From an archaeon (GTDB lineage: Archaea; Micrarchaeota; Micrarchaeia; Norongarragalinales; UBA97): a DNA stretch of 64,000 nucleotides. Under the pieces are notes generated by a model. It was not told the DNA's origin. It searched no databases and saw only the letters and a program-made list of their open reading frames with translations. Numbering within the stretch: position 1 is the first letter of the stretch; each line of letters opens with the position of its first letter. Where the stretch lies: positions 32,001 through 96,000 of the forward strand of contig JAGVFW010000013.1 in NCBI GenBank assembly GCA_020057405.1, read 5' to 3'. Shown piece by piece: positions 42,315-64,000 of the stretch. A program made the translations under genes and the position numbers.

Positions 42315-42325
42315 GTTGAACCTGC

Positions 42326-45027: not shown

Positions 45028-45032
45028 AACAA

Positions 45033-46454
45033 ATGACCCACCTAAAATTTAACAACTATATAGGCGGAAAGGAAGTTCTACTTTCAGGACAAACTTTTAC
45101 AGTTGAAAGCAGCATATATCCCGACTATCAGTTTCTAGCTCCTGAAGCGGGACTATTTGATATTAAAACGGCAATTTCTAAGGCGCGTACATCTGTAAAA
45201 GACTGCCACGCACTTACCTTTAGCGAACGAATAGAAATACTTGAACGAGCGGCGGCTTCTTTTTCGCCAACTGCAACTGATTTCGAGTTCGCTGTCAAAA
45301 CCACAGGCATGCCCATATCAAATGTTAGGTCTTTTTCAGAAGATATTCGAAATATTTACCGCAATGTACCGATTGCTATAGAAAAGCACATAGGCCGGCT
45401 GGGCGACCGGTTCGGACATGACCTTAGACACTCAGAAGGCACCGTGCATTTTGAACCAATAAATGGAATAGTATATGCAATTACGCCAGGTAACGATATT
45501 CGCGTAACCGCATTCATTGCAAGTTGGCTAGTAGCCTTAGGAATACCCGGAATATTTAAATGCTCAAAAAACGACCTCGCGTTTGCTAATAAAACTTTAC
45601 AAAAGTTAGTCGAGGCGGGCTATCCGGAAGGCGGTCTTAACCTGCTTTGTTGGGATACACAAAAAAAGGAAAATGCTAAATTAAATTTCGAATTGGTAGA
45701 TTCTTCGAAAGTTGTTTGGGCATATGGAGCCGATTCGACCGTTGATTTCATGCTTCGATTTGAAACAAAATCTGAAAACCAAGTTTTAGATCACTTTTCG
45801 GACAAAACCATACTAAGACATGCAACCGGAAGAACCGCAGCTATATCCTCTCCGAAAACAGACATCGAAAAAGTATCTGAACGCGCGACTACCTCCGCTT
45901 TAACTTGGCCGATTGGTTGTAACTCGCTAAAAGCACTATTTAACGCATCCAACAAAAACACCGAGGTTGTTAGCGCCCTAACGGAAAAGTTCGAGCAACT
46001 TGCTAAACATACCGGCGACCCCATGAAAAACACTACGAAGATAGGCTTCACGGAACCAAAACTACTAGCCCAGGTGTGGAACAGAATAAATGACCTCAAA
46101 AAAACCGGTCAGCTTAGCTTGCTTACTGGAGAAAAAATTAGTGAAAGACAATGCACGCCGCTACTCTTAGAAACTCTCGACCTTAATTCGGAATTCCTAA
46201 ACACTGAATTTTCTACTTATCTACTAACTATCAAAAACTGCTCCGGGTTTAGTGAAGCGATAGATGAGGTCAATGTAACTTCAGGTGCGAATAGACGACT
46301 CGTAGTAACTGTTTTTTCTTCTGAAAATGAAAAACTCGGAAGAATTCACGCGCACCGAATAAATATGAACACCATAACAACCGATCTCGACCTATTATTT
46401 CAAGAAGGAAACGACTACTTTAGCAAACTGACTACGCCCCAACTTCATAAATGA
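45033..46454 (+). CDS. LuxC-like acyl-CoA reductase / ALDH-fold protein
   Basis: ERIEIL, PGN, KCS, AYGADSTV, GCNS catalytic Cys. Confidence 0.75.
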   Translation: MTHLKFNNYIGGKEVLLSGQTFTVESSIYPDYQFLAPEAGLFDIKTAISKARTSVKDCHALTFSERIEILERAAASFSPTATDFEFAVKTTGMPISNVRSFSEDIRNIYRNVPIAIEKHIGRLGDRFGHDLRHSEGTVHFEPINGIVYAITPGNDIRVTAFIASWLVALGIPGIFKCSKNDLAFANKTLQKLVEAGYPEGGLNLLCWDTQKKENAKLNFELVDSSKVVWAYGADSTVDFMLRFETKSENQVLDHFSDKTILRHATGRTAAISSPKTDIEKVSERATTSALTWPIGCNSLKALFNASNKNTEVVSALTEKFEQLAKHTGDPMKNTTKIGFTEPKLLAQVWNRINDLKKTGQLSLLTGEKISERQCTPLLLETLDLNSEFLNTEFSTYLLTIKNCSGFSEAIDEVNVTSGANRRLVVTVFSSENEKLGRIHAHRINMNTITTDLDLLFQEGNDYFSKLTTPQLHK

Positions 46455-47263: not shown

Positions 47264-48154
47264 TTAAAAAAGCATATCGGATCGGGTAGCTTTACCCCGT
47301 TTGAATCCACCTTTAGTCGGGCCTACCTCAAACACGCATTTTTGGTCGCCTTTTGCTATGCACTTGGTTTCTTTTGCTTCGATTGCTGGGTCACCATACA
47401 TTACGGCGAATCCTCCCGCTAGGCAGCCGCGCAGAAAATCGTCCACAGGCTCCTTGCTTTTTCCGAAACGATTAAGGTATTCGACTGCGAAGGGAGAATA
47501 ATCTACTGTGACGAAAGCGGTTTTATTTGCCGTATCTATCTGCTCGATGTTTAGACTCCCCCAGCCGACTATTGAGAGCGTGTCAATGCCGTGCTGGAGT
47601 TCTACATCCAAGTCGCCACGGGTTACGCCCGTTCTACGCATTTCAGAATACCAACTGACGCTCATATCTCTTACCGTTTTGTAAAGAAGGCCGGGCTTCT
47701 TTTTGAGTTCAATGTGCCAAAGTAGGTACTGATACATCGGAATCATGCAAATCTTGTGCCCAAATAAGTAAAGCTCATCCTTCGACAGGGTGAGATTTCC
47801 ACTAAGCAAAAGATGTTTGAGCAGCGACAATGCCCTAAATGCAGAAAACATCCGGCCCTTGGCCGGAATGGCGAAAAAAGTTTTTGAATCGGAAGACGCC
47901 TGTATTGTCGAAATTTCTTGCGCCAAATTTCCCAACCAAACGCGATTAATAGAATAACCGGCATCATCTTTCACTAGCATTCCGGCGGCGGCCATTTCGC
48001 CGAGCGCCTTGTGTACGCCTTGGTAGGTAGCTTTGGTGCCTTCCTTTTGCACTGCCTTGAACGTTTCTTTTGCCGTTAGGGGCGCTTGCTCGGAGAGCGC
48101 GTTAAGCGTGGCGCCTTTCACACCGCCCAATGCAGAGCCTAGGACTGAACTCAT
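47264..48154 (-). CDS. wHTH-V4R transcriptional regulator
   Basis: N-terminal PLTAK..TYQGVHK; C-terminal GWG..SPF..RGCLAGG..ETKCIAKGDQKCVF. Confidence 0.85.
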   Translation of the reverse strand: MSSVLGSALGGVKGATLNALSEQAPLTAKETFKAVQKEGTKATYQGVHKALGEMAAAGMLVKDDAGYSINRVWLGNLAQEISTIQASSDSKTFFAIPAKGRMFSAFRALSLLKHLLLSGNLTLSKDELYLFGHKICMIPMYQYLLWHIELKKKPGLLYKTVRDMSVSWYSEMRRTGVTRGDLDVELQHGIDTLSIVGWGSLNIEQIDTANKTAFVTVDYSPFAVEYLNRFGKSKEPVDDFLRGCLAGGFAVMYGDPAIEAKETKCIAKGDQKCVFEVGPTKGGFKRGKATRSDMLF

Positions 48155-48978
48155 TTTCTCCCTCCGCACAGTGCAATCGTTTCTTTCTTTAGTTGGTCGG
48201 CGAGGGCTTGGTTGCGGATGACTGCAACTGGCACTCGCGCCTTTTTCATGAAAACCGCCTCGTAGAAGCTGTCGACATCGAAGTCGCTCATTTTGGAGGC
48301 GGAGTTGTAGACTTTGTCGAGTGCTTTCTTGAACTCGAGCGGGTAGTAGACGCGCACAACGAAGTCCTTGTAGACGACGGTATCCGTGCTCGTCGCTTCC
48401 TTCACGCCAATCCGGTGCTTCAGCTTGGAGTTCTTGCGCCAGTAGTCCGCGCACCAGCGGTCAAGCGGCGTGTCGGCAGGCGTTATCGAGTAGCTGTCGG
48501 ACACGCTTACCAGCTCCTTCATGCGCAAGTAAGTCTCGCGGTTGAGGAACAGGGGAACCCAGAAGTGGCACCACTGCAGCGCCAGTACCTTGTCCTTTGG
48601 GTCAAAAACCTTCTGCGCGAAAGAGACAAGGAAATCGTCAACCTCGGCAACAGAATCAAAAAAAAGCACCGACTGGCCGGCGGGCATGCTTAAACCGGTC
48701 TTCGAATAGGAAGACTTGAGCTCGTCAGAAAACCGTGAGAGTCCATCAATCCAATCAAAGGAAAGAGAGTAACCCTCTGGAGAACGGGAAATCACGCCCT
48801 CCAAAGAAAGCTCGCCTAAAGACTTGTGGATTGCCTGATAAGTAAGGTGCGTTCCGTTCTTCGCAATTGCGGAATGGATTTGCTTGGCAGAGAGCGGCCA
48901 CTTGGCAGAGAGAACACTGATAATCGCGCTTTTCGCGTCCGCTTTTCCTCGACTGCCTAGAGTAGGTAATTCAATCAT
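48151..48978 (-). CDS. wHTH regulator paralogue
   Basis: WPLSAKQIH..LTYQAIHK..YSLSFDWI; start MIELP overlaps the upstream stop. Confidence 0.8.
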   Translation of the reverse strand: MIELPTLGSRGKADAKSAIISVLSAKWPLSAKQIHSAIAKNGTHLTYQAIHKSLGELSLEGVISRSPEGYSLSFDWIDGLSRFSDELKSSYSKTGLSMPAGQSVLFFDSVAEVDDFLVSFAQKVFDPKDKVLALQWCHFWVPLFLNRETYLRMKELVSVSDSYSITPADTPLDRWCADYWRKNSKLKHRIGVKEATSTDTVVYKDFVVRVYYPLEFKKALDKVYNSASKMSDFDVDSFYEAVFMKKARVPVAVIRNQALADQLKKETIALCGGRK

Positions 48979-49826
48979 TTCCTTCCCCTCCTGAACTCGG
49001 CGAGCGTTTCGTCGATGATTTGTTTTGCCATTGCCTTGTTGCGGGTGATGACTACTGGGACTTTCATGCGGGCGCCGATTCCGACGAGCACGTAGTCGTA
49101 GACGACACGCATTACGCTGGCCGCTGACTGGGACGAGAAAGTCAGGTGCATGAACTTTTTGAATGCGGGGGGCCAGTAGATGTTGATTACGTAGTCGTTG
49201 AAGGCGAGCACGTCGCACGCTTCGGCAACGTCAACACCGGCAAGCCATTTGAGGGCTATTGGACCCTCCAAGTACTTCAGGCAGTAAATGTCCCCAGGTG
49301 AGTTGCCTCGGCAGAGAGCGTAATTGCCCTTGCTTTTCTTGAATCTGGCCATTTTCTTGTATTGCTCCTCGCCAACCATTTGCGCCGCCCAAGCGAACCC
49401 GCAGTGCTGCACAATCACGCTCTTGCCTGCGGCGATTGGAGGCATCTCATCAATGACCCAATAGGGGGCGGAGATTATGCCCGTAAAAGTGTAGGAAACC
49501 GAAGAGTTGGGAGGAATTTCCAAGAGACGAGGAGGCTCTCCGCCCGAATATCGCTTGCTAGCGTCATTCCACCAAGCTTTCTGCGCTTCGACCCACCCTG
49601 GCGAAAGCGAATATCCTTCCGGCAAGCGCGAGATAACGCCATCGGCCGACAACTCGCCCAAGACCTTGTGCACCGCTTGGTAAGTAAGTGGCTTGCCGCC
49701 GTCCTTTGAAACTACAGCGTGCAACTGCTTTGCAAACAAGGGCCATTTGACTGCTAGCGCGTTGATCACGCGCGAGCGGGCGTCATGCCTGCCGCTTGCG
49801 AGCAGTCCCGCGTTAAGTTCAGCCAC
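48975..49826 (-). CDS. wHTH regulator paralogue
   Basis: WPLFAKQLH..LTYQAVHK..YSLSPGWV. Confidence 0.8.
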   Translation of the reverse strand: MAELNAGLLASGRHDARSRVINALAVKWPLFAKQLHAVVSKDGGKPLTYQAVHKVLGELSADGVISRLPEGYSLSPGWVEAQKAWWNDASKRYSGGEPPRLLEIPPNSSVSYTFTGIISAPYWVIDEMPPIAAGKSVIVQHCGFAWAAQMVGEEQYKKMARFKKSKGNYALCRGNSPGDIYCLKYLEGPIALKWLAGVDVAEACDVLAFNDYVINIYWPPAFKKFMHLTFSSQSAASVMRVVYDYVLVGIGARMKVPVVITRNKAMAKQIIDETLAEFRRGRK

Positions 49827-50721
49827 TGCGCTTGCCTCCGGTTTTGAAGTGCGTTGCCAGCTTCCTTCTCATTTCTCTTGCAAGCGCGGCGTTTCGGGTG
49901 ATGACTAGCTTGATTTTGAATTTCTTTTGGAAGCAAATCTTGTAGAGGGAATTGAGGTCCATGATTTTTTTTATCATGTTCTTACTGAACCACGCCATTA
50001 CTTCGGGGGGCGTGTAAATCTGGACGATAAAATCGCCGAAAACCACGGAGTCTACCTTGTTTGCAGGGTCGGTGCCCATAACGTAGGGCGTGCCGAAACC
50101 ACGCTTCCAAAACTCTAGAGTGAACCTATCGAGAAAGAAGTTCGTCGTGCACACGAGCCTTGTGCGGGCCGAGGAAGTAAGCTGCCTGATTTCATCATAC
50201 TCTTTCTTGCTAACAATAAAGACCGGCCAGGCGCCGTACATCACGATGAAAACATCGCCCTCGACCCTGTGCTTGAGAGTATACTCCGCCATCTCGGAAA
50301 GAACCCAGTAAAAGGGCGCGGCCAGACTCTCGTTAAACTCCACAGTTGTGCTGGAATCAGGCGCAATGTCGGCAAACGAAATGCGGTCAGGCGAGACGTG
50401 ACGCACTTCCGCCTCCTGCAAAAACTTCTTAGAACGCGAAATCCAGTCAAGAGACAAACGATAATTGCTAGAAAAATTGCGCTCAAGCACGCCCTCAGAA
50501 GCAAGGCGCCGAACCACCTTGTGGACGGCCTGGTAAGTCAACTGCTTGCCGCCGTCAGATAAAAGAAGCGAGTGAACATGCTTTGCGGACAACGGGGACT
50601 TTCTAGCCAGTGCCGAGATTACACGCGAGCGGGCGTCACGGCGCCCCGACGCTAGGACACTTTCCGAAAGCCCCCGATCTAAGTTGCCAACCAAACCCCA
50701 AACCACCACTCCGCAGGACAC
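49819..50721 (-). CDS. wHTH regulator paralogue
   Basis: SPLSAKHVH..LTYQAVHK..YRLSLDWI; start uncertain. Confidence 0.8.
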   Translation of the reverse strand: MSCGVVVWGLVGNLDRGLSESVLASGRRDARSRVISALARKSPLSAKHVHSLLLSDGGKQLTYQAVHKVVRRLASEGVLERNFSSNYRLSLDWISRSKKFLQEAEVRHVSPDRISFADIAPDSSTTVEFNESLAAPFYWVLSEMAEYTLKHRVEGDVFIVMYGAWPVFIVSKKEYDEIRQLTSSARTRLVCTTNFFLDRFTLEFWKRGFGTPYVMGTDPANKVDSVVFGDFIVQIYTPPEVMAWFSKNMIKKIMDLNSLYKICFQKKFKIKLVITRNAALAREMRRKLATHFKTGGKRSG

Positions 50722-50769
50722 GAAGAGTCCCGGGGATTGCCAACTGGATAGTGGTGACGACCGGCTATA

Positions 50770-50834
50770 AACTTTTAGTTGATTGCAGTTCTACCGCACC
50801 TCTTTATTCGGGCACAAACACAATAATTTCGACA
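50770..50834 (+). promoter_or_regulatory. shared operator/promoter block, copy 1
   Basis: AACTTTTAGTTGATT..TTCTACC..CACAATAATTTCGACA; 54/65 identical to 54386-54450 by manual alignment. Confidence 0.75.
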
Positions 50835-51946: not shown

Positions 51947-52807
51947 ATGGGGCAGGTGGTTGGAATGGGTTTGCTTGGAAAACTTTTGGGCGGAGAAAAG
52001 CCTATGCCCAAGAAGAGCGGGGGGCACGGCAGCCACTGGCAAACGCTTTTCCCCCAGTTGGACGACGTGTTTGTAAAAGCGCTCGTGGCCGGAGCGGAGT
52101 CAAGTAAGGTAGAATTAAGCCGCAAGGGCACGTTTGCAGGAATGCGGGACACTACGCTGGCGTACGCGGTGTTTGGAGAGAAACTTGCGTTCGTTTACGC
52201 GCTTTTCTTAAAAGAAGTCGAACGCGATGGAAAGAAGCTGAAAGGCCTGATTGTTGACGAACCGTTCACCGCATACCCCGCTTACTTTGCCGCAAAGCCA
52301 CATAACGGCACGATCAAGGCGGTTGAGGAATGGGCAAACGGGACCGAAGCGCAGGTGCAAGTCAAGCTCGACGCTGGACCTGCTTTGTGGTTTTTCGCGA
52401 CCGACTACTTGGAGAAGAAGGAAAAGTACGCAGTTGGAAGCAAGGCGGCACCCAAACTCGCGGGTTTTGCATATCGGCTGAACAAATTAGGCGACGAAAA
52501 ACGCGAAGTCACGCTTCCTGACGGGAGCAAGGCGTCAATGGACAACTTCGCGGGCATTATCCCCATGCAGATGACGCACAAGGCTGGCGATGTCGACGAT
52601 TATGCCGTGTGGGCGAAGGTAGAGCGGCTTTCGCAAGAGAAAACGCCAGTTAGCGCGAAAGTCGTCGAGGCGATTGTGGCGTACGGAGGCGAAAACCACA
52701 AGACAGCCATATCGATTCCCATCGTGACCACGGAAAAAACACTTCCCGATGCAGTCAAGCCCGGCGAGAAAATCACGGGAACGATTTGGTTAACTGGATC
52801 GCTTTGA
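51947..52807 (+). CDS. hypothetical protein
   Basis: 286-aa ORF with host-like codon usage; no motif recognised. Confidence 0.7.
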   Translation: MGQVVGMGLLGKLLGGEKPMPKKSGGHGSHWQTLFPQLDDVFVKALVAGAESSKVELSRKGTFAGMRDTTLAYAVFGEKLAFVYALFLKEVERDGKKLKGLIVDEPFTAYPAYFAAKPHNGTIKAVEEWANGTEAQVQVKLDAGPALWFFATDYLEKKEKYAVGSKAAPKLAGFAYRLNKLGDEKREVTLPDGSKASMDNFAGIIPMQMTHKAGDVDDYAVWAKVERLSQEKTPVSAKVVEAIVAYGGENHKTAISIPIVTTEKTLPDAVKPGEKITGTIWLTGSL

Positions 52808-52809
52808 GA

Positions 52810-52840
52810 CAATCAACTTTTAGTTGATTGTGGTTCTACC
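52810..52840 (+). promoter_or_regulatory. palindromic operator, copy 2
   Basis: CAATCAACT-TTT-AGTTGATTG (perfect 9-bp arms) then TTCTACC. Confidence 0.8.
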
Positions 52841-52875
52841 CAACAAATAAGATTCTGCAAAAATAAAACAAGTTA

Positions 52876-53778
52876 GTGAACATCGAAGTTGTTGATTGGA
52901 AGATTATTGGAACCTGCAATTTGCGTTGTTTGCACTGCTACGGCCCGCCCAAAACGGATACGGCCCTCCCATTAGAGAAATTACTAGCAATCATCGACAA
53001 GTTCAAACTTCTTAAAATAAAATGGGTGGTGCTAACTGGAGGTGAACCCTTGCTCGTACAGAATATAGAAACAGTATTCCGTCACTTAAATCAGCACAAC
53101 ATCAAAATCGCTTTATCGACTAACACCACCTACTTCAGAAAATTTCAACCATCCATTGAAAAGTACGTTTCGTCACTGAATATTCCGATTGACGGTTCCA
53201 CACCAGAAATTCACGCTAAATCACGTAAAGACACGGCGTCATATCATTCAGCAGCCGATGTCCTTAAGTTCTACCTTGAAAATCCGGAAAATAAACCCGA
53301 ACTACTTCGAGTGGGGACTGTTTTCTCGAAAGCTAACCAAGGAGATTTCATCAACATTGCAAGGCTGCTTGAACCCTACGAATCAATCATAAGCACGTGG
53401 AAGATCTACGAATTAATGAACTCCGACACGCACCTTGATCTCAGAGCGCCGATTCTCCACGAACACGCTAATTTTGAACTGGAAATGGAGGAACTACACT
53501 CTACGGGCTTGCTTTCATCGAAAATATTGGTTTCCCGCGCTAGCTCGAGAAATAAGGCCTACTTTATGCTTAATCCCCAAGGGCAAGTCGTAGTTCCGAC
53601 AAACCTAGATGGCATCTCCACGGACATGCCTGCCGGAGACTTCTTATGGACTCCAACGGACAAGTTGTTGGCACGCTGGCAAACAATGGTTTCCACAGAA
53701 AACTATAACTCAAACCACACTCGCCACTATGGCAAGATTAAGCTAACTCCGATTATGCTTGAGATGAAAGCGCGATGA
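52876..53778 (+). CDS. radical SAM enzyme, viperin-like
   Basis: CNLRCLHC, TGGEP, STN, IDGS, RVGTV, WKIYE, YFMLNPQG. Confidence 0.85.
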   Translation: MNIEVVDWKIIGTCNLRCLHCYGPPKTDTALPLEKLLAIIDKFKLLKIKWVVLTGGEPLLVQNIETVFRHLNQHNIKIALSTNTTYFRKFQPSIEKYVSSLNIPIDGSTPEIHAKSRKDTASYHSAADVLKFYLENPENKPELLRVGTVFSKANQGDFINIARLLEPYESIISTWKIYELMNSDTHLDLRAPILHEHANFELEMEELHSTGLLSSKILVSRASSRNKAYFMLNPQGQVVVPTNLDGISTDMPAGDFLWTPTDKLLARWQTMVSTENYNSNHTRHYGKIKLTPIMLEMKAR

Positions 53779-54344
53779 CTGGGGAACTGATGGACGTAGT
53801 CAACCACGCAAATGCCGTTATTGGAAGCGCGACAGTAAGCGAAGTGTATGAGCGTAAATTATCGCACCGGATAGTACATGTTTTTGTCCTCAACCAAAAT
53901 GGCGAAGTATACCTGCAACAGCGGGCCCTAACTGACTCATTTCTTCCAGGGTACTGGTGCACCTCTGCAGGAGGGCACGTAAGAAAAGGAGAATCGTACG
54001 AAGATGCAGCGCGCAGAGAACTTGAAGAAGAGCTTGGCCTCAAAGATGCACCACTCGCCCCGCTAGGCAGCACTTTTCAATTCCAGCCCGACGAACACCA
54101 ACGCCACCTGCAAGTCTTTGTCGCGTTCTCACCAAAAAGTCCGGCCCCAAACAAAGCCGAGGTGCATAAGGGTAAATTTTTTGACCTAGGGGAAGCGATA
54201 CGAAAAGTCAAGTCAAACAAGCAAATTCATCCTCAACTTCAGCCCTGCTTGGCTCTGCTTTATGAAAACAGGGAAAGGCTTAAGGAAAGTCTGATCTTCT
54301 CTCCGAAAACCGAGCGGGAGCTATCGGCGAAATCCTCAAAATAG
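53775..54344 (+). CDS. Nudix hydrolase (IDI-like subfamily)
   Basis: HRIVHVFV, LQQR, PGYW..SAGGHVRKGESYEDAARRELEEELG. Confidence 0.9.
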   Translation: MTGELMDVVNHANAVIGSATVSEVYERKLSHRIVHVFVLNQNGEVYLQQRALTDSFLPGYWCTSAGGHVRKGESYEDAARRELEEELGLKDAPLAPLGSTFQFQPDEHQRHLQVFVAFSPKSPAPNKAEVHKGKFFDLGEAIRKVKSNKQIHPQLQPCLALLYENRERLKESLIFSPKTERELSAKSSK

Positions 54345-54380
54345 GTTAGTTTTCAGATTGTCGAAATCCCGACATTCCAC

Positions 54381-54450
54381 CAATCAACTTTTAGTTGATT
54401 TCAATTCTACCGAGCTAATTTATTCCGGCACTTCCACAATAATTTCGACA
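54381..54450 (+). promoter_or_regulatory. shared operator/promoter block, copy 3
   Basis: AATCAACT-TTT-AGTTGATT, TTCTACC, and the same downstream block as copy 1. Confidence 0.78.
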
Positions 54451-54643
54451 TGGATGCGCGGGCCAACAAAGTAAAAACACGGGGGCGCTTATTTTCATTA
54501 AGGCGTTCACTGCGGCCAGCGCCAAAATCTCCTCTTCTTAAGTTCGAGCGGGAACCGGCAGCGGAAGGGTTGCCTACCAAAAGCGGATTGCCTCAAAGCG
54601 TATCCGCGCCGGTTGCCCGACTTAAAGGGGACAACGGGAGCAC

Positions 54644-55165
54644 ATGCTGAAAACGCCTAGGAATATCATAATCGAGGGCGTGGAATGCGCAGGCAAGACC
54701 ACGCTAATAGACGCGCTTAGCCGTGAATGCCGCGGGTGGGACATCAAGTACCTGCCGCACAAGGACGGCAACCAATTCAAGAGATACGTGCACGAGTACC
54801 TCACCAACGAAAAGACGATTTTCAACCGCTCGCACTTAAGCGAAGTCGTGTGCGGGAGTTTGTGGAGAGGCGGACCTGGAATGAGTGAAGAGGAAACGAG
54901 TACCCTAAACAAGCTAGTTGGAGAAGAATTCGTCGTGGTGCTTGTTGACGCCGACCCCGAAGTGATTAAACAGCGCTTTAGGGAAAGAGGCTATGTCGAG
55001 GGGGCTAAAATTGACGAAGTGGAAGCCGTCCAAAAGGGATTCAAAAACGCATTTGAAAACGTGACGCACATAACTTGCGTGTCAAACGACGAGGACGACT
55101 TGAAACGAAATGTCGGGACTATAGCGAAGTTCATGAGGGGGATTGCGGATGGAGAAAGTCACTAG
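54644..55165 (+). CDS. thymidylate-kinase-like NMP kinase
   Basis: IIIEGVECAGKTT, FNRSHLSE.V, lid region RFRERG. Confidence 0.85.
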   Translation: MLKTPRNIIIEGVECAGKTTLIDALSRECRGWDIKYLPHKDGNQFKRYVHEYLTNEKTIFNRSHLSEVVCGSLWRGGPGMSEEETSTLNKLVGEEFVVVLVDADPEVIKQRFRERGYVEGAKIDEVEAVQKGFKNAFENVTHITCVSNDEDDLKRNVGTIAKFMRGIADGESH

Positions 55166-55835
55166 AATTCCGACGCCTATCGAAATTCGCGCGATGTACG
55201 ACGAATACGGCGTTCCTATGAGCATCAGGCGGCACATCGAACGCGTGCGCGATGTTGGCGTGGCAATCGCCCAGAGAATGAAAACCGCGGGGACGCCGGT
55301 CAACGTGGGACTCGTAGAAGCAGGTTGCCTGATTCACGACGCGTTCAAGACTGCCACCGTAAGCGAGCTTAAGGCGAACCCGGAATTTGAGCAGCTGGAG
55401 CCTACTGAAAAGGAAATCACGGCCTGGAAAAAACTCAGGGAAGAGTACGGCGGGAAGATGCACGAGACGCTAGTGGCGGCGGAGAAAGTGCGGGAAAAGT
55501 ATCCCGAATTCGCCAAGTTCGTCGCGAACATCGGGTCAACGGGCAATCCGACGTACCTTAACCCGCCTAGCCACGCGCTTGAACTGCAGATACTCCACTA
55601 TGCCGACTGGCGCGTGCAGTTTGTCAACGTCATCCCGTTTGCCGAGCGGCTTGAGTACCTGCGCAAGACTTACTTGCCGCGCCATCCTGACAGGGGACAG
55701 GAGTGGTGGAACGAGATGCTCACGCACGAGTTTGAAATAGAAAAGCGGTTGTTTGAGAAGCTTGACGTAACGCCAGAACAACTCAAAGACATCGTCCCGA
55801 CTCGCGAATATCACGAAAGGCCGCGTAACGCTTAA
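55149..55835 (+). CDS. HD-domain phosphohydrolase
   Basis: RHIERV, LIHDAFK, HE, YADWRV. Confidence 0.85.
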   Translation: MEKVTRIPTPIEIRAMYDEYGVPMSIRRHIERVRDVGVAIAQRMKTAGTPVNVGLVEAGCLIHDAFKTATVSELKANPEFEQLEPTEKEITAWKKLREEYGGKMHETLVAAEKVREKYPEFAKFVANIGSTGNPTYLNPPSHALELQILHYADWRVQFVNVIPFAERLEYLRKTYLPRHPDRGQEWWNEMLTHEFEIEKRLFEKLDVTPEQLKDIVPTREYHERPRNA

Positions 55836-56083: not shown

Positions 56084-56404
56084 ATGAGTTTAGGTAGGAA
56101 AAGTTTGGTGGCCGTGCTACTGCTAATGGCAGTGCCTCTGGCGTTTGCGCAAACGCCCACGCCGCCGGGACAGGAAGTGGCTGGAAAGTTGTGCAGCATA
56201 GTGGATTTCGTGCAGTACATTGCCGGCGCGGTGGGTATAGTGGTCCTCGCAGTATTGGGACTCCAGTTCGTCACGGTCGGCTCCAACCCCATGAGAAGAG
56301 AGGAGCTAAAGACGCAGATGGGATTGGCGCTGATGGGCTTGTTCATCGTGCTTGTCTCGAAGTCCCTGGTTGGCCTCATACTGCCAAACGCGGCAACCTG
56401 CTAA
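56084..56404 (+). CDS. VirB2/TrbC-like pilin
   Basis: Signal peptide, then two hydrophobic helices joined by GSNPMRREELK..ALMGL. Confidence 0.75.
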   Translation: MSLGRKSLVAVLLLMAVPLAFAQTPTPPGQEVAGKLCSIVDFVQYIAGAVGIVVLAVLGLQFVTVGSNPMRREELKTQMGLALMGLFIVLVSKSLVGLILPNAATC

Positions 56405-56418
56405 AACCGGGTAAGCAC

Positions 56419-57948
56419 GTGGGATGGGTTTTGGCGGCAGCGGTACTGCTTGCAGTGGTCGGGATGGCGGCGGGGGAGAGTGTGCAAGAGATTGTCGCCG
56501 CTACAAACTTGCTTGACAACACTCGACCCGCGTTCCAGCTAGTGCAGGCGGCTAACGCCAACTTGACTTGCTGCGGCAAAGGCCCGCCAGTAGGGGCCGC
56601 CAACGCAAGCTCGCCTGCCGGAACTACGTTTGCGAAGCTCGTGGACTTTAGCCCAAGTGTTTTTGACGTGCTTTCTGGCGAGCTCGTGCTCAATCAAACT
56701 GGCAATGTCACTACCTTTGCTTCTGCGACAATACTCAAGCCGCAGTTAAGCGGGCAAGGCGACTGCAAGACAGTGAAGCTGCTTTCAACAGTAAACTCGA
56801 GCCTGACCCTAACGCAAGTGCCGCAGGGAAAAGTTCTTGCGAGAACAGGACACTTTGAGTCCCCGCAACTTGACTTTAATTCCTTTCAAAACTATTCCGC
56901 CGGTTGGCCAAGGCGAGGGCGCACGGAGCTGCCGTACGACTTGGACGGCGGGGAAGGAAAAGAAGCGCTCGGCTTGAGGCTCAACTACTCGGTTCAAGCG
57001 ACTTTCACCGTAGCGCACTACAAGAACGTGCAACACCGAGTTTGTTTCATCACTTGTTTCTACTACTGGACCTGCGACTACTCAAGCCAAGAACAAAAAG
57101 CCTACCTCTTAGCTGCAGTTCAAACGCAAAACGCATCGTACTACGCAGGAGGGCCCGGGGCCGAGTCGGTAGAAGAACTCGCAAGCGGGGGACTTACGTC
57201 AAACACGACGATTGAGATGAAGACGCCATTCGACTACGTGAAAATCACGGCCGGCGCCGCCACTGCGAAAATCCGCACTGCCGCTTTCCCCCTTTCGTAT
57301 GAGAATTCAAGTTACGAGTTCATCAGGATAAACGCAGTGCCAACGCACGCCAGCGAGACAGTGGGTGCACGTATTTTGAGGGAGTCGAAGTTAGGCACTA
57401 CAGTAAATTTGGAAGTTTGGTTTCCTGCTTCATCACAAGCGCAAGTGCTCCTGCAAACGCCATTCGCGGAGGTACGCTTGGCTGCCAGCATAAGCCGGGT
57501 TAGTGCGGAAAGACTGGCCGTCATCGCAGCGCGGAGCGGTCGGGCTGGAGAGAAAATTAACGCGACTGCTAGCGTAACTTTTGAAAACGGCTCGCCTGTT
57601 GAAGGCAGGCTGGTGAAATTCACTTTGCCGGAATCGGCTGGTTACGACGCGATGACCAACGGCAGCGGGTTGGCCGTCGCGAGCTTTTTGATGCCTGAAG
57701 GGCAAAACGCGGTCGTGAAGGCAAGCGAATCAAACGGGGCGCGGGAGCTCGAGGCGCAAAGCACGGTTTTCGTGCAAAACTCTTCTCCTCGGCTGCTTCT
57801 CGACTACGCCCAACTGGCCTTAGCCTGCGCGATTGGATTTTGGTGCATTCTTTTCGGGCTTGGCTTGCGCCGTGAAGCGAGTCATGCACTTGGGACAGGG
57901 CTTGCTTGTGCGGCAATGCTGTTTGTCGCCTACTCGGTGGTCGGATGA
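56419..57948 (+). CDS. secreted, C-terminally anchored Ig-like surface protein
   Basis: Signal peptide, Cys cluster CFITCFYYWTC, Big-like NGSPVEG..TNGSGLA, two C-terminal TMs. Confidence 0.7.
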   Translation: MGWVLAAAVLLAVVGMAAGESVQEIVAATNLLDNTRPAFQLVQAANANLTCCGKGPPVGAANASSPAGTTFAKLVDFSPSVFDVLSGELVLNQTGNVTTFASATILKPQLSGQGDCKTVKLLSTVNSSLTLTQVPQGKVLARTGHFESPQLDFNSFQNYSAGWPRRGRTELPYDLDGGEGKEALGLRLNYSVQATFTVAHYKNVQHRVCFITCFYYWTCDYSSQEQKAYLLAAVQTQNASYYAGGPGAESVEELASGGLTSNTTIEMKTPFDYVKITAGAATAKIRTAAFPLSYENSSYEFIRINAVPTHASETVGARILRESKLGTTVNLEVWFPASSQAQVLLQTPFAEVRLAASISRVSAERLAVIAARSGRAGEKINATASVTFENGSPVEGRLVKFTLPESAGYDAMTNGSGLAVASFLMPEGQNAVVKASESNGARELEAQSTVFVQNSSPRLLLDYAQLALACAIGFWCILFGLGLRREASHALGTGLACAAMLFVAYSVVG

Positions 57949-58859
57949 AGGTATCTGCTATTGCGGTTGCTGCGCTCTTGCTAACGGGTTTTGCCAGCGC
58001 CTTTGACGGATGCCAGGACAACGGCTGCAACGATTTGCTGTGCAAGATTGCGGGATTGCCAAACGCGATTCAGTGCGCGCTGGAAACCGGGATAGCAAGC
58101 CAGCTTGAAAACGCGGTGACCGGCATTCTCTCGCGGGTCACGCAGTTTATTGTCGGAAGCCCGCCCCTTGACGGCAGTTCGACTAGGGAACTGTTTTCGC
58201 TCGTGTCGTTTTTGGTCGAACTCTTGTTCGTGCCAATCCTGATGCTAAACGGCTTGAAGCTCACGTACTCGAGCATGTTTAGCGCGCAAGAACGCGCGGA
58301 GGCAAAAGACGAGGTAAGGCAAGTTCTCGTGGCAATGGTGCTCGTGTGGGCGGCCTACGACTTGTACGCGCTTGCAACTGACGCGACAAACGCTTTTTCC
58401 GCCGCTTTGGCCCCGAGCCAGGCGGACTGGAATAATGCAGTAAACGCGAGTGCGGGCTTGTCCGGAATTGGGAACCTGGTTTTGCTCGGGTTAATCGTGT
58501 TTTCGCTACAGTTTTTCGCGTTTACGGCTTTCGCGAGATATATTCTGGCTTACGTCGGGCTCTTTACGCTAGTAATCTCGATGCCGCTTGAGGCGCTTCC
58601 CGCAACTTCCGGAATTGGTAGGGCAATGCGGAACCTAGTCGTGGCAAACTTCATCGTGCAAATTCTCCAGGCACTTTTCCTCAAAATTGCGGTAACAAGC
58701 ATCGCGGACTTGAACACGAGCTACACTTACAAGTTCGCTTTCATTACGGGAGTTCTTTTGGTCGGGGCACTGGCGGGAATAGTGGTTTACGCCGCGGCCC
58801 TGCTTTCGTCAATTTCGAGGAGTCCGGCCGCTAGGATGCTTGCTTACGCGGCGAGGTGA
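57945..58859 (+). CDS. VirB6/TrbL-like polytopic membrane protein
   Basis: Multiple TMs, RAEAK, FARYILAY..PL..LPAT; position in the T4SS-like operon. Confidence 0.65.
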   Translation: MKVSAIAVAALLLTGFASAFDGCQDNGCNDLLCKIAGLPNAIQCALETGIASQLENAVTGILSRVTQFIVGSPPLDGSSTRELFSLVSFLVELLFVPILMLNGLKLTYSSMFSAQERAEAKDEVRQVLVAMVLVWAAYDLYALATDATNAFSAALAPSQADWNNAVNASAGLSGIGNLVLLGLIVFSLQFFAFTAFARYILAYVGLFTLVISMPLEALPATSGIGRAMRNLVVANFIVQILQALFLKIAVTSIADLNTSYTYKFAFITGVLLVGALAGIVVYAAALLSSISRSPAARMLAYAAR

Positions 58860-58865
58860 AAATAA

Positions 58866-59900
58866 ATGGAAGGGGAGTTTGGAAAAGGGCTGTTGTACGA
58901 AGTGCCGGAGGAACTCCGCCACGAGGAGCGGGTGCTGTGGGTGTTTTCGTTACGGCAACTGCTCATACTCCTGCCATTTGCCATCGTGGCGCTGGCTTGC
59001 TTCCTGGGACTCGAGAACCTGGACTTTAAGGCGCGGCTCGCGATTCCGGCAATCATCTTATTTGCGGGTTATGCGCTTGCCTGCATTAAACCCGTGCAAG
59101 AGGCGGCTTGGCGCCACGTCAAGTACTTGATCACGCCTAGGCGGACAAGCTGGCGCGAGCCCCTCGCATCCGCTCACTTCGTCGGGGTTGAGGAAGTAAA
59201 AGCCAACGCGGTCTTCACTTCTGACGGCCACCTGCTTTCAGTGCTTTTGGTGACGCCCCTTGACTACAGCGTGCTTGGAGAGGACCAGAAGCACGCGCTC
59301 GTCTACGGCTACCGCTCGTTTCTAAACGCAATCTCGTTTCCAGTGCAGGTGGTGATGCGCACGACGAAAGTCAACTTGAAAGAGTATTTTGCGAAAGCCA
59401 AGGCAAAGGCCGCTAAGGCGGGTGATTCTGCGGCGCTATTGGAAATTAGCAAGTTCGAGCAGTTCGTCGAAGACTTCATCTCTTCGCGGGGAGTCAATGA
59501 CCGGCTGTTTTACCTCGTAATCCCGCAGGAGAAGGGAAAAGACCTCGAAAAGTCGTTGCGAGAGCTTGAAAACAAGACTGCCGTGTGCTGCGAAAAACTG
59601 GCGGCAATCGGCATTGCGTGCCGGAGGCTGGACGACAACTCACTAGTCTCGCTTTACGCAAGCTTTTTCGGGGGATTCGTGGAAGCCGGAGCCGATTACC
59701 TATCGCTCTTGACTTTCCTTGACTTTGCGCAAGAGCAACGGGAAAAACTCGAGGCTGCGGGAGCGAAAATGCGGGCTAAAGCCGTTTTCATTGGAATGGA
59801 GGTCGAACAAAGTGCTGGAAAGACTGTTTGGAAGGAAAAGGGAAGAACCGAAGCTCAAGGAAAGGCTATTGCCGTACCTGCTGGCGCCCTCAAGCATTGA
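58866..59900 (+). CDS. PrgI/VirB3-like membrane protein with cytoplasmic domain
   Basis: YEVPEELRHEE..FSLRQL, two TMs, FLNAISFPVQ, FYLVIP. Confidence 0.7.
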   Translation: MEGEFGKGLLYEVPEELRHEERVLWVFSLRQLLILLPFAIVALACFLGLENLDFKARLAIPAIILFAGYALACIKPVQEAAWRHVKYLITPRRTSWREPLASAHFVGVEEVKANAVFTSDGHLLSVLLVTPLDYSVLGEDQKHALVYGYRSFLNAISFPVQVVMRTTKVNLKEYFAKAKAKAAKAGDSAALLEISKFEQFVEDFISSRGVNDRLFYLVIPQEKGKDLEKSLRELENKTAVCCEKLAAIGIACRRLDDNSLVSLYASFFGGFVEAGADYLSLLTFLDFAQEQREKLEAAGAKMRAKAVFIGMEVEQSAGKTVWKEKGRTEAQGKAIAVPAGALKH

Positions 59901-62097
59901 AAACAAGCCAGACTACATAAAAATCGGCGAGCAGTATTGCCGCGTAATCGCAGTGCTTGGCGTCCCGCGAGTTGTGCGCGCTGGTTTTCTTAACGCGCTG
60001 ATGATGCAGCAAGGCGATTTTGACGTGAGCATTCACGCTAGCCCGCGGCAAGTTGAGGACACTATAGCTGAACTAAACCACGAGCTGGTCAAGATGGCCG
60101 CGGACCTCTACTCGATGGAAAGCAGGGGCGACGTGGTGCCACCTAGCCTGAAAATGAAGTACGACGACACTATGCGCATCCTACAGCTGCTGCAAAGCGG
60201 GGAGGAAAAGCTCTTCGACTTCTCCCTCTACATCAACATTCGTGCAAAAAGCCCGGAAAAACTAGACGAGATGACCGGGAGAATGGGCGCGACCCTAGGG
60301 CAACTGGCGCTTCTTTACAAGACTATGGATTTGCAGATGCACGAAGCGCTTCCAAGCGTCCTCCCAATCGCCAGAAACCGGCTCGGCATCACCCGAAACA
60401 TGACGAGCTCGGCCCTCGCAGCGTGCTTCCCCTTCACAACAAGCAACCTGCAGGTAATGGAAAACGGGATAGTAATGGGCGTAAACGACCTCACAGGCAT
60501 TCCGATAATCATAGACTTGCACGCCCTCCAGAATTCAAACGCCTTGGTGCTCGGAGGCAGCGGCAGCGGAAAGAGCTTCAGCGTAAAAACCATTCTCTTG
60601 CGCTTGAGGCGCAACGGCACGCGCGTCTACGTAATAGACCCGCAAGGAGAGTACGCCAAGCTCGCCAAGAAATTTGGAAAAGGCGCGCAAGTAGTCGGAT
60701 TCAACCCGCAAGACAACAACGCGATAAACCCATTTGACCTAAACGGGCTGCGGCTAAGTGAGAAAGTCCACTCGCTGATGAGCCTATACTCCATAATTTG
60801 CGGCGAACTTTCCCCGGCCCAAAAAAGCCTGCTTGACGAAGCCACTTACGCAATTTACGAGGAACGCGGAATAAGTGACTTTACGCAAGCGAATGAAAAA
60901 ACTAGGATGCCGACCTTTCGCGACCTGCACGACTACTTCAGCAAGAAAGCAAACTCGCCGAATGACCTGATGCAGTCGCGTTCAACTGCTTTGGCGCTCT
61001 TAAACCGCGTAAAACCGTTCGCGACCGGCTCGATGAAGTGCTTCGACTCGCAGACTAGCGTAGACCTGGCGGCTGACTTCGTCGTTTTTGACGTCTCCTA
61101 CTTTATCGACAAGATGCAGACGGTCGCGCCCCCCGCGATGTTCATCGTACTCGACTTTTTACTCAACAAGATGAAGGAAGACTCACGCCAGAGAAAAGCA
61201 ATAGTGGTCGACGAAGCCTGGCGCCTTTTGCGTGGCCCCAGCATTTCGGAATACCTCCTCTTGTTCGCAAAAACAGCCAGGAAGTACAACACTTCCCTAC
61301 AAATAATCACCCAAGAACTAGGCGACCTTGGCAAAAGCGAGGCCGGAGCGGCGGTTCTGGCCAACACGTCAGTAAAACTAGTGCTGAGGCAAGAACCCTC
61401 TGAAATAGAAGCCGTTGGAAATGCGCTCAAGCTAAACGCGAACGAAAAAAACCGCCTTCTCTCGGCACAACCGGGCCACGGCGTGCTGTTCATCGAGAAT
61501 TCCCGCATTCCGTACTACAGCATCCACATGCCTGAAGAAAAGGAATTCATTTCAACAAAACCAGAAGAAATGACGAGCCTAGAAAAAGAACACGCGGTCG
61601 TCAGGGCGGTTGAAGAGCAAGCGCCATTCGAGAAACTCGACTTCGAGAACGGCTTTTACAAGCGCGGCGACCTCACGCCCGGAGAGGTCATGCTATTGCT
61701 CAAAAATGGCTTTACCGTGGCGACAGCCTACGACATTCGGCTCATGCGGCCAGTTGACTTCGTAGTAAAACCCAAGGCACCGGAAAGCGCGCAGCACACA
61801 ATCTACGTGACTCAAGTCGAACGCCTAATTCGAGAACACACATCTAACGTAAAGGTGAACGTGGGCAACGATGCCGACATCGTCTTTGTTGACAAAGACG
61901 GTAAGAAAATTGCGCTCGAAATTGAGACGGGAATGCGGCGCGACTACCTGCTCAAAGCCAACTCCGCACACCTGCGAAAGTACGACGAGGTATACTTCCT
62001 GGTTACGAGCGTGCACTTGGTGGAAAAATACCGGAAAATAGGGAGGGTGCTGACGAGGTCGGAAGTCCAGAGGTTTGTGGAAGAGAGATTGAACTAG
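59812..62097 (+). CDS. VirB4-like ATPase with C-terminal PD-(D/E)xK-like domain
   Basis: FPFT, GGSGSGKS, IDPQGEY, VVDEAW, ARKY, ITQ; tail H...ADIVF..IALEIETG; GTG start with GGAGGT SD. Confidence 0.88.
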   Translation: MLERLFGRKREEPKLKERLLPYLLAPSSIENKPDYIKIGEQYCRVIAVLGVPRVVRAGFLNALMMQQGDFDVSIHASPRQVEDTIAELNHELVKMAADLYSMESRGDVVPPSLKMKYDDTMRILQLLQSGEEKLFDFSLYINIRAKSPEKLDEMTGRMGATLGQLALLYKTMDLQMHEALPSVLPIARNRLGITRNMTSSALAACFPFTTSNLQVMENGIVMGVNDLTGIPIIIDLHALQNSNALVLGGSGSGKSFSVKTILLRLRRNGTRVYVIDPQGEYAKLAKKFGKGAQVVGFNPQDNNAINPFDLNGLRLSEKVHSLMSLYSIICGELSPAQKSLLDEATYAIYEERGISDFTQANEKTRMPTFRDLHDYFSKKANSPNDLMQSRSTALALLNRVKPFATGSMKCFDSQTSVDLAADFVVFDVSYFIDKMQTVAPPAMFIVLDFLLNKMKEDSRQRKAIVVDEAWRLLRGPSISEYLLLFAKTARKYNTSLQIITQELGDLGKSEAGAAVLANTSVKLVLRQEPSEIEAVGNALKLNANEKNRLLSAQPGHGVLFIENSRIPYYSIHMPEEKEFISTKPEEMTSLEKEHAVVRAVEEQAPFEKLDFENGFYKRGDLTPGEVMLLLKNGFTVATAYDIRLMRPVDFVVKPKAPESAQHTIYVTQVERLIREHTSNVKVNVGNDADIVFVDKDGKKIALEIETGMRRDYLLKANSAHLRKYDEVYFLVTSVHLVEKYRKIGRVLTRSEVQRFVEERLN

Positions 62098-62150
62098 CCC
62101 GGAAAGGTGCTTTCGCAAGCAATTTAAACACGCACTACAACTTATTATAG

Positions 62151-62399
62151 GTGATTACAGTGGATTATACTACCATTCAAATCAGCACAAACATCCGCAA
62201 TAGGCTTACTGAACTCAAAGACTCGCCCCGCCAGACTTACGACGAGGTTCTAGAAAAGCTCATAGAACTTGTCCCGAAAGGAGATGAAGAAGGAGAATAC
62301 AAACCCGCTTTCAGAGGCAGCATCCTGCGCGGACTCCTTGACGCACGACACTCGAAAACCACAGCGCTGGCAGAACTGGAGAAACAATTCGGAACGTGA
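62151..62399 (+). CDS. antitoxin
   Basis: TTIQIS..RLTELK..TYDEVL; ends LAELEKQFG; overlaps the RelE gene. Confidence 0.75.
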   Translation: MITVDYTTIQISTNIRNRLTELKDSPRQTYDEVLEKLIELVPKGDEEGEYKPAFRGSILRGLLDARHSKTTALAELEKQFGT

Positions 62400-62656
62400 A
62401 ACTCATGGCCTACTCCGTTCAGTTTTCGCAGGAAGCACGGGCAAACCTAGAGAAACTAGATCCACCTACGGCACGCAGAGTGATTGAAAAAATAAAGGTT
62501 GCAGCGGCAGACCCCTTTCACTATTTCAAGCGGTTAACCAACAGCGAACTCTACAAGCTTCGCGCCGGCGATTGGCGCATCCTCGCACTCATCAACCCCA
62601 CAAACGATACCCTATTCATCGTCACCCTAGGTCATCGTAAGAACATCTACGAGTAG
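62396..62656 (+). CDS. relE: RelE/ParE family toxin
   Basis: YSVQFSQEA, YKLRAGDWRI, LGHRKNIY. Confidence 0.9.
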   Translation: MKLMAYSVQFSQEARANLEKLDPPTARRVIEKIKVAAADPFHYFKRLTNSELYKLRAGDWRILALINPTNDTLFIVTLGHRKNIYE

Positions 62657-64000
62657 GGCAAGCCGTCAGCCACTTCTAGTGCTTTCTCCCTCACCATCGC
62701 CGCCGACAATCCAGCGTCAACCACGCGAATTAACCTCCATCCTTTTTTGGCCAACAGCGTTTCCTTTTCTCCGTCGCGTGCTTTTTGCTTGTCCTTTGCG
62801 TGAAAGAACGCCCCATCCCACTCCACCGCAAGCTTCCTTTCAGGAAAAGTGACGTCAATCTCGAAAGGCGGTAACACCGTCCTGTCGGAAAAAACTATCT
62901 TCTCGGCCGGCAAAAGCCTGCGAAGCTCTTCATAAAACAAGCGCTGGTTGAAGGAACCGGAAATGAACGGCGCCTCGGCTTCAGCGTTCTCCTTCACGCC
63001 GTCCTCCCACAACGGCTTAACGCGCACTTTAGTCACCTCACGCTTGACACTCGTCGAGAAAAGCGCCTCGAACTGCTGAAGGGAATGCAATTCCTCCTCA
63101 ACCAACCTCGCCTTGTCAGAATACTTTCCGCCGCAAAGCAAAGCAACCGCGTAAGCAGCGTCGTCAGGCTCGCGCGTCAAAAACACGGCATTAACCGCAC
63201 AGTTAGCTGCAAGCGCCGGGTCAAGCGCTTTCACGCTCTGGCTTACGACAATCAAACCGAGCCGAAACTTTCGCGCTTCGCGTAATACCGTCGCGACGTA
63301 CGACGGCTCTTCTTCAGTGCCAACGCAGAGCTTCTGCGCCTCATCTACCAAAGCAAACAAAACCGGCAGGTTTTCAAGCGACTGACAGTAAGAATAGAGC
63401 TTACGCAAGAAAACCTCGGCAAAAACAGCTTGCGCGTCAGCCGACCGCAACCCCTTAAGCTCAAAACAACAGGTCTGACCCGTGACAACCGAAAACGGAA
63501 CCTGCGTTTTTGAAGAGAACACCCCGCTTAGAGAAATCATGTCGAGCCTGCGCTTCAACGAAAAGAGACTCGCGTCCGGCTTCTTCTGGCTCGACAAAAG
63601 AAAACTACAGTACGCCGACACTTCAGGAAGAGAAGGCGGCCGCCTGTTCCACGAACCCCTATCACCATCGCGAAAACCCCGCTCCTCAAACGCACCCTTG
63701 ACGCATTTGGCCAAAAAATACGCTTGAATATCCCCAAGCCCTAAAACCCGCTTTAACATGGAAGAGCTTTCCGCAGATTTTTCAGCCGGCGTACAACCAT
63801 CCAACTCAAAAAGCGCAAGATTGACTTTTCGAGCATCAAACACCCGCCCCCCACACGCACGAACGACGCCAGCGTACTCCTCGTGCGGGTCAAGCACGAC
63901 CACTGGCGCCCCCGCTTTCGTCAACCCATAAACCAAGCGCTTCGCCAAAGTCGACTTACCAGAACCACTCGCCCCCACAATCAAGGTGGAAGGCGCCTGC
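62647..64000 (-). CDS. HerA/VirD4-like ATPase fused to Vsr/DUF559-like endonuclease (5' end outside window)
   Basis: GASGSGKS, LDPHEEY, VDEAQ, EARKF, VSQ; tail EIDV..LAVEWDGAFFH..RD..KGWRLIRV; frame open to the window edge. Confidence 0.85.
   Translation of the reverse strand, partial: QAPSTLIVGASGSGKSTLAKRLVYGLTKAGAPVVVLDPHEEYAGVVRACGGRVFDARKVNLALFELDGCTPAEKSAESSSMLKRVLGLGDIQAYFLAKCVKGAFEERGFRDGDRGSWNRRPPSLPEVSAYCSFLLSSQKKPDASLFSLKRRLDMISLSGVFSSKTQVPFSVVTGQTCCFELKGLRSADAQAVFAEVFLRKLYSYCQSLENLPVLFALVDEAQKLCVGTEEEPSYVATVLREARKFRLGLIVVSQSVKALDPALAANCAVNAVFLTREPDDAAYAVALLCGGKYSDKARLVEEELHSLQQFEALFSTSVKREVTKVRVKPLWEDGVKENAEAEAPFISGSFNQRLFYEELRRLLPAEKIVFSDRTVLPPFEIDVTFPERKLAVEWDGAFFHAKDKQKARDGEKETLLAKKGWRLIRVVDAGLSAAMVREKALEVADGLPYS

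Follow-up and report, generated by a model that had tools for sequence, protein, structure and literature searches.

A radical SAM enzyme of a viperin sister clade and its coupled Nudix hydrolase in a Norongarragalinales archaeon

We analyzed a 64,000-nucleotide stretch of archaeal DNA, hereafter the window (contig JAGVFW010000013.1, positions 32,001 to 96,000, of assembly GCA_020057405.1; Micrarchaeota, order Norongarragalinales), taken from a genome of 1.22 Mb that is 90.6% complete. Four consecutive genes in it encode a radical S-adenosylmethionine (SAM) enzyme, a Nudix hydrolase, a nucleoside-monophosphate (NMP) kinase, and an HD-domain protein, which an earlier note, made by a model from the sequence alone, had read as a viperin-like pathway under one operator that makes a nucleotide analogue for defense, competition, or signaling. 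The four open reading frames (ORFs) and every motif quoted for them are present (CNLRCLHC at residue 14 of the radical SAM enzyme, GGEP at 55, RVGTV at 145, WKIYE at 175, and YFMLNPQG at 229). The radical SAM enzyme is not a viperin; it belongs to a sister group of the viperins, which are its closest kin in our sample. Together with the Nudix hydrolase, it would form a two-gene module for a sugar-modified nucleotide other than a 3′-deoxy-3′,4′-didehydro-nucleoside triphosphate (ddhNTP), probably serving defense or conflict, a reading that we draw from sequence comparisons and hold with moderate confidence.

A sister group of the viperins

The enzyme matches PF04055 with 52.6 bits (cut-off 29.5) and carries the CxxxCxxC and GGE motifs. 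Its best NCBIfam family is viperin (NF038283), at 63.8 bits against a curated cut-off of 180, and its best PADLOC family is pVip (prokaryotic viperin), at 75 bits; the MoaA family TIGR02666 gives 53.7 bits against a cut-off of 284. Across 62 family members, the best E-value with NF038283 is 5.7e-23, compared with ~1e-66 to 1e-97 for true viperins. The only cysteines are residues 14, 18, and 21; therefore, the protein lacks a SPASM/Twitch auxiliary cluster, in agreement with the earlier statement that it has no SPASM domain. Its architecture is of the viperin type, i.e., a partial barrel with a C-terminal extension, a single CxxxCxxC, and no auxiliary cluster. In Foldseek, the AlphaFold2 (AF2) model (predicted local distance difference test score, 94.9) returned viperins in all of the first 10 rows (template-modeling score 0.71–0.79), and VIA-align superposed it on viperin 5vsl with Z = 27.0 (root-mean-square deviation 2.0, 247 residues aligned), followed by SuiB (22.8), SkfB (22.6), BlsE (21.2), and MoaA (18.5). 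The ESM Atlas returned generic ‘radical SAM’ clusters only.

A homologue search limited to proteins of 165–525 amino acids gave 104 matches, 63 of them close relatives with 45–59% identity and alignments covering 65% or more of the query; in a profile search, 379 representatives scored at E ≤ 1e-30. Among the 150 of these that were listed, 143 scored best with a profile of the sister clade that was itself built from most of the 150, which puts the clade at no fewer than 143 representatives at 50% clustering. Three trees were computed on subsets of 94, 48, and 40 rows, with fragments and multi-domain SPASM rows excluded and MoaA as the outgroup. The sample comprised 21 viperins above the NF038283 cut-off, 20 of which came from a set of 30 matches, 8 MoaA, and 15 SPASM-type sequences, as well as wider-clade members recruited by similarity to the window’s family; four annotated plasmid viperins were collected and three used, and eukaryotic and Asgard viperins, BlsE, and OpnA lie outside it. 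In all three trees, the viperins form one clade (support 99; 100/99; 100/100), the window’s family and its wider relatives form a separate clade (97; 100/98; 93/95), and the two are united (98 by the Shimodaira–Hasegawa-like approximate likelihood ratio test; 100/96; 98/89). Approximately unbiased (AU) tests, run on 30 of the 40 rows of the third tree, reject nesting inside the archaeal (p = 5e-46) or bacterial (p = 2e-7) viperins and weakly reject a union of the family with viperins to the exclusion of the wider clade (0.041) or with SPASM proteins (0.029). Thus, the proposed viperin-like identity stands as kinship by fold and by trees, whereas membership is rejected by the sub-threshold score, the replaced motifs described below, and the AU tests. 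Clustering with unrelated radical SAM families, which the earlier note had named as the outcome that would refute it, was not seen in this phylogeny with pVips and MoaA. A second radical SAM family, marked by an HCYGN motif, branches beside the viperins and the sister clade (support 95/83).

The substrate pocket is partly kept and partly rebuilt. In an alignment with the 21 viperins, RVGTV, WKIYE, and YFMLNPQG fall in the KxNxxV, WKxxQ, and SYxMxxPxG columns, and the viperin NxH and KxN motifs are replaced, both as the earlier note had it. Kept residues are W175, K176, and Y229, whose columns are invariant in all 21 viperins, along with P234 and G236. The viperin K is R145 in the window enzyme, and the other replacements are N/H by D7/K9, K/N by W50/V52, N by G147, and Q by E179; five of these columns (N/H, K/N, and the N at G147) are invariant in the 21 viperins. 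NxH occurs in none of the 143 sister-clade members. The viperin C-terminal RGGxYxW is missing, and Y277, H281, and Y285 are invariant in all 57 relatives compared, with R225 in 54. The viperin residues replaced here contact the ribose and triphosphate; for this reason, the enzyme likely still takes a phosphorylated nucleoside, though its chemistry may differ. Loop 181–187 reads MNSDTHL in the window and IDYEFQP in the family, which conserves the Q in 56 of 57 members (H in the window) and the E in 53 of 57; the departure is confined to the window’s protein. A frameshift was rejected as its source, the DNA reading in frame.

The Nudix partner, two transcription units, and variable cargo

The window Nudix protein matches PF00293 with 79.6 bits (cut-off 21.1; E = 2.7e-22), contains the Gx5Ex7REUxEExGU box, and scores 84 bits with NF011922 (cut-off 152). 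Its gene is translationally coupled to that of the radical SAM enzyme, whose GTG start aligns with the Met start of relatives, through an ATGA overlap. A Nudix gene lies within 1.5 kb of the radical SAM gene in 7 of 8 close-relative loci, compared with 4 of 144 other radical SAM loci; all four of the latter belong to the HCYGN family, which leaves 0 of 140 in the remaining controls. Three of the 63 close homologues are radical SAM–Nudix fusions (P0012, P0018, P0021), another is fused to CYTH (P0054), and one of five wider-clade loci also has a Nudix gene nearby. We regard the radical SAM–Nudix link as strong. The arrangement varies between loci: radical SAM, adenylate kinase (AdK)-like, Nudix in L001; the same order with CYTH fused or inserted in L004 and L005, which come from one genome; Nudix, radical SAM, guanylate kinase in L002 and L003; Nudix, radical SAM on the short contig L080; and nucleotidyltransferase, Nudix, nucleoside-diphosphate (NDP) kinase, radical SAM in L082. 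Neither the clade nor a viperin-like/Nudix module was found described in the literature, in a search that covered few subscription journals.

Two further groups of loci were recorded. Of the 12 HCYGN-family loci recorded (L007, L009, L013, L014, L016, L017, L023, L028, L036, L047, L053, L074), nine have a Nudix close by, and HD, guanylate-kinase, or HIT-like neighbors occur. In the count within 1.5 kb, a Nudix was present in five of eight loci of this family. An E. coli plasmid cassette (L189:5983-7993), present in 3 of 5426 genomes and adjoining insertion-sequence and toxin–antitoxin (TA) genes, joins the radical SAM enzyme of a distant clade member to a deoxynucleoside kinase and NudI.

The kinase and the HD protein are only loosely tied to the radical SAM enzyme. 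The closest solved sequence to the kinase is YorR of prophage SP-beta (E = 2e-7), a partial match to VakA has E = 1.4e-6, and one homologue was found. Adenylate- or guanylate-kinase-like genes adjoin the radical SAM gene in five of the eight relatives’ loci, and one further locus has an NDP kinase; because the kinase type varies between loci, the link appears to be functional rather than by descent, and the window kinase probably serves the radical SAM–Nudix module. The HD protein has 26 homologues with conserved H...HD...D ligands, an ‘oxetanocin-like protein’ as the best solved-sequence match of its family (E = 3.5e-6), a weak profile match to 1xx7, and no fold-search match at E ≤ 0.001. No homologue of it (P0004) occurs in the relatives’ radical SAM loci, and in two of five radical-SAM-bearing genomes, more distant family members lie on another contig between dnaK and dnaJ. 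The HD protein may be a bystander.

The four genes are two units, since each pair has its own copy of a palindromic element (Table 1); the kinase and HD genes share 17 bases, and the two pairs lie 299 bp apart. The 19-bp palindrome AATCAACTTTTAGTTGATT gives five strand-matches at three window sites against a chance expectation of 0.06, and TTCTACC and an AT-rich box come after each copy. Contig C5 has a fourth, weaker copy (C5:21251, minus strand), which heads a 1080-aa secreted-looking protein. Within the order, the element occurs in 16 of 68 genomes (reversed-pattern control, 1), and the 21 copies examined elsewhere head large surface-type proteins, methyltransferases, a winged-helix gene, a Nudix gene, and others; none heads a member of the window’s radical SAM family, and one precedes a radical SAM pair whose score is just 76 bits. 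A winged-helix homologue adjoins the element in 6 of the 21. The claim of one operator therefore survives in that identical palindromes head both units, whereas the kinase–HD unit has a separate copy, and an operator dedicated to these genes is ruled out by the order-wide spread of the element and its unrelated genes. Since, moreover, codon use differs between the units and HD orthologues with visible surroundings sit in housekeeping contexts, a single four-gene pathway is not upheld. The element is not a known structured RNA, as it has no Rfam match at E ≤ 1 and similarity ends beyond ~60 bp; a scan for sigma-70 promoters and terminators, of a type unsuited to archaea, stayed at chance level. 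The element, which heads variable cargo and often lies beside a gene of a winged-helix family, marks a candidate undescribed regulon. This winged-helix family has no Pfam match over cut-off; copies of the element outside the window lie in L239 and L247-L268.

A single genome among 401 from the phylum carries the radical SAM gene; in the order, five others give weak matches only. The G+C content at third codon positions (GC3) is 0.50 for the radical SAM gene and 0.49 for the Nudix gene, among the lowest 5% of 749 ORFs, against a genome median of 0.69; the kinase–HD unit is host-like (0.63 and 0.69). In a genome of the same genus, the slot between the winged-helix gene and a VirB2-like pilin is occupied by four different genes and two element copies. 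Given the patchy occurrence, the variable slot, and the low GC3, the radical SAM–Nudix pair appears to be newly arrived cargo that has come under an operator of the host. No integrase or tRNA attachment site was found by eye in ORFs up to 24 kb past the window, and no close HD relatives in viral contigs or phages.

Proposed mechanism and its alternatives

Members of the wider clade are joined to domains that point to biological conflict. Among 44 long wider-clade proteins, Pfam identifies fusions to TIR (two), caspase (four), PRTase-CE (two), and HD (two; P0126, P0151), and long sister-clade members also carry WD40. A double Lrp/AsnC module is present in 24 of 35 long members and lies divergently upstream in L001, L004, and L005. 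Proteins that combine the clade’s radical SAM domain with TIR, caspase, WD40, PRTase-CE, or double Lrp/AsnC include P0112, P0113, P0119, P0120, P0123, P0145, P0174, P0223, and P0230. The multi-domain sister-clade proteins are candidate immune signaling proteins, and, because of the TIR, caspase, and PRTase-CE fusions and the patchy, cargo-like distribution, a conflict role for the window’s module is plausible. Of the nucleotide-analogue system first proposed, we retain viperin kinship, a nucleotide substrate (Nudix and kinase linkage exceeding the control by far), and conflict as a plausible role, without the single four-gene pathway; its inducible and detoxifying character is conjectural.

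We propose that the target of the SAM-derived radical would be the sugar moiety in a nucleoside di- or triphosphate bound by K9, R145, K176, and R225; Y229 stands where viperin has its conserved Tyr. The Nudix hydrolase would then strip pyrophosphate from the product or a by-product, either for self-protection or as the next step, and the NMP kinase would supply or re-phosphorylate the substrate. Sitting in a variable cargo slot, the module would answer to a winged-helix regulator of the host that acts at the order-wide operator, which the kinase–HD unit shares.

Several observations weigh against this proposal. Identity to viperins is only 13–16% in the structural alignments; four of the five wider-clade loci are without a Nudix, and one relative (L081) has the radical SAM gene alone, with neither Nudix nor kinase. 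The relatives’ loci are not independent (L004/L005 are from one genome, and L002/L003/L080 share one layout), the Nudix profile was seeded partly from these same loci, and the 21 viperin loci and most relatives’ loci are covered over short flanks only. No close radical SAM relatives were found in viral contigs or phages, and the only known defense system flanking the cassette is a ParE-type TA pair ~6 kb away. Finally, the break in loop 181–187 could reflect decay instead of new specificity.

The enzyme might, alternatively, work as a viperin, i.e., as a divergent ddhNTP synthase whose product ends viral RNA synthesis, while the kinase supplies the substrate and the Nudix limits self-toxicity. 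Viperin is indeed its best family, profile, and fold match, with W175, K176, and Y229 in invariant viperin columns, and kinase neighbors are also known from pVips, the accessible text of one preprint giving a neighboring kinase for 12% of bacterial and 5% of archaeal viperins (bioRxiv 10.1101/2023.09.13.557418). We consider this function unlikely given the five replaced invariant columns, the absent RGGxYxW, the lack of NxH throughout the clade, the rejected nesting, and the failure to find a Nudix box beside the 21 viperins (by regular expression, in flanks of ~1.5 kb). Quite unlikely is a role in nucleotide salvage, repair, or signaling, in which a scavenged or damaged nucleotide is processed or a small ligand is made for an Lrp/AsnC-type regulator: close members do occur in small-genome lineages (Uhrbacteria, Buchananbacteria; 1.1–1.4 Mb), a ligand-binding regulator of the Lrp/AsnC type is a neighbor or fusion partner, and rpoB/C and a gene for a ribosomal protein are among the neighbors in L002 and L005, but the occurrence in one phylum genome of 401 and the TIR, caspase, and PRTase-CE fusions suit conflict better than housekeeping.

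If all four genes acted together, kinase, radical SAM enzyme, and Nudix followed by HD dephosphorylation could yield an excreted nucleoside antimetabolite, as for oxetanocin, where OxsA removes phosphates from the oxetanocin nucleotides (PMC8177086, in its accessible part) and so provides a precedent. The operator sequence common to both units, the ‘oxetanocin-like’ match of the HD family, the two HD fusions in the wider clade, and the combination of radical SAM, Nudix, and HD in L053, albeit in a different family, point the same way. Such a pathway is nonetheless very unlikely: the HD protein has no homologue in any relative’s locus and no fold match, its family lies beside dnaK and dnaJ elsewhere in two genomes, codon use differs between the units, and no exporter is nearby. 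Scarcely credible, lastly, is a chance cluster in a cargo hotspot with a radical SAM enzyme acting on a non-nucleotide substrate; the operator heads unrelated genes elsewhere and SPASM enzymes are the next fold matches, but the Nudix fusions, the linkage of 7/8 versus 0/140, and the disfavored family–SPASM clade argue otherwise.

Compared with known systems, the window enzyme resembles pVips (NF038283; PADLOC PDLC02903/02904) as a single-cluster radical SAM protein of ~290 aa with the same barrel, the WK and Y..xPxG columns, a frequent kinase neighbor, and a patchy distribution. It departs from them in NxH (DxK here) and in both KxN motifs (WxV and RxG), in its other C-terminus, in the often fused Nudix partner of its clade, and in its kin with Lrp/AsnC, TIR, and caspase fusions. 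As in OxsB/OxsA of oxetanocin A, a radical SAM enzyme stands alongside an HD protein, here a predicted phosphohydrolase; unlike there, the HD link is not conserved in the window’s family, and OxsB, a cobalamin-dependent enzyme, is much larger. MoaA and BlsE (cytosylglucuronate decarboxylase), which act on nucleotide or nucleoside substrates, also match by profile and fold, with lower Z than viperin, and both have the auxiliary-cluster cysteines that the window enzyme lacks. The anti-phage system Ophion consists, according to the accessible text of its preprint, of the radical SAM protein OpnA, related to but distinct from viperins, with PHP and PRTase (bioRxiv 10.1101/2025.09.30.679545). By that description, on which the comparison with OpnA is based, Ophion likewise pairs a viperin-related non-viperin with nucleotide-handling partners, which in the window are Nudix, kinase, and HD rather than PHP and PRTase.

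Viperin trees are usually rooted on MoaA, as far as the accessible texts show (PMC10732462; bioRxiv 10.1101/2023.09.13.557418), and the sister clade, which is nearer, has 143 or more representatives, and shows a rebuilt pocket, would be a better outgroup. Having Nudix, kinase, TIR, caspase, and Lrp partners, the clade would also be a source of new radical nucleotide chemistry, and the two-gene module is small and directly testable with assays already used for viperins. Speculatively, and with low confidence, this large undescribed clade might make a second class of antiviral or signaling nucleotide, e.g., a 2′-deoxy, DNA-directed chain terminator or a messenger read by the fused Lrp, TIR, or caspase. 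The archaeal member, with its rebuilt specificity loop and thymidylate-kinase-like partner, might then have moved to another base and been taken into a regulon of the host, next to a type IV secretion cluster.

Coordinates and genomic surroundings

Table 1. Genes and palindrome copies of the locus, in window coordinates
Feature	Position	Strand	Description
Radical SAM enzyme, 300 aa	52876..53778	+	Viperin-sister clade; CxxxCxxC 14-21, GGEP 55-58
Nudix hydrolase, 189 aa	53775..54344	+	Intact Nudix box; YfcD/IDI-like group, below cut-off
P-loop NMP kinase, 173 aa	54644..55165	+	Thymidylate/deoxynucleotide-kinase-like
HD-domain protein, 228 aa	55149..55835	+	H29, H63-D64, H105, D153; predicted phosphohydrolase
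66-aa ORF	54450..54650	+	In kinase leader; doubtful gene
Palindrome and TTCTACC	52811..52842	+	Predicted operator/promoter heading radical SAM–Nudix unit
Second, exact palindrome copy	54382..54413	+	Heads kinase–HD unit
Third palindrome copy, 2 mismatches	50766..50797	+	Heads CARDB surface-protein gene, beside divergent winged-helix cluster
Four tandem winged-helix paralogues	47264..50721	-	29-40% identity; candidate element regulators, from context

A local search found no homologues of the ORF in the kinase leader. One of the winged-helix paralogues has a V4R domain, and their cluster is next to a KaiC-like ATPase; comparable KaiC/V4R genes are present at window positions 39089-40368 and in genomes G086 and G337. 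The gene at 51947-52807 encodes a 286-aa protein with no Pfam match, whose ESM Atlas neighbors are hypothetical proteins, some with DUF3881.

Farther upstream, positions 41016-46454 hold a low-GC (41-44%) operon with FIST-domain, short-chain dehydrogenase/reductase-like, phenylacetate-CoA-ligase-like, and aldehyde dehydrogenase/LuxC-like genes. Downstream, positions 56084-63999 are type IV secretion-like, with a VirB2/TrbC pilin, PrgI, a VirB4/TraG-like ATPase, the ParE-type TA pair, and a HerA-like ATPase whose tail resembles a restriction endonuclease; the part from pilin to VirB4 is syntenic in the same-genus genome. Elsewhere in the window, genes labeled by eye as SRP54-, RPA-, and geranylgeranylglyceryl phosphate (GGGP)-synthase-like have an archaeal look.

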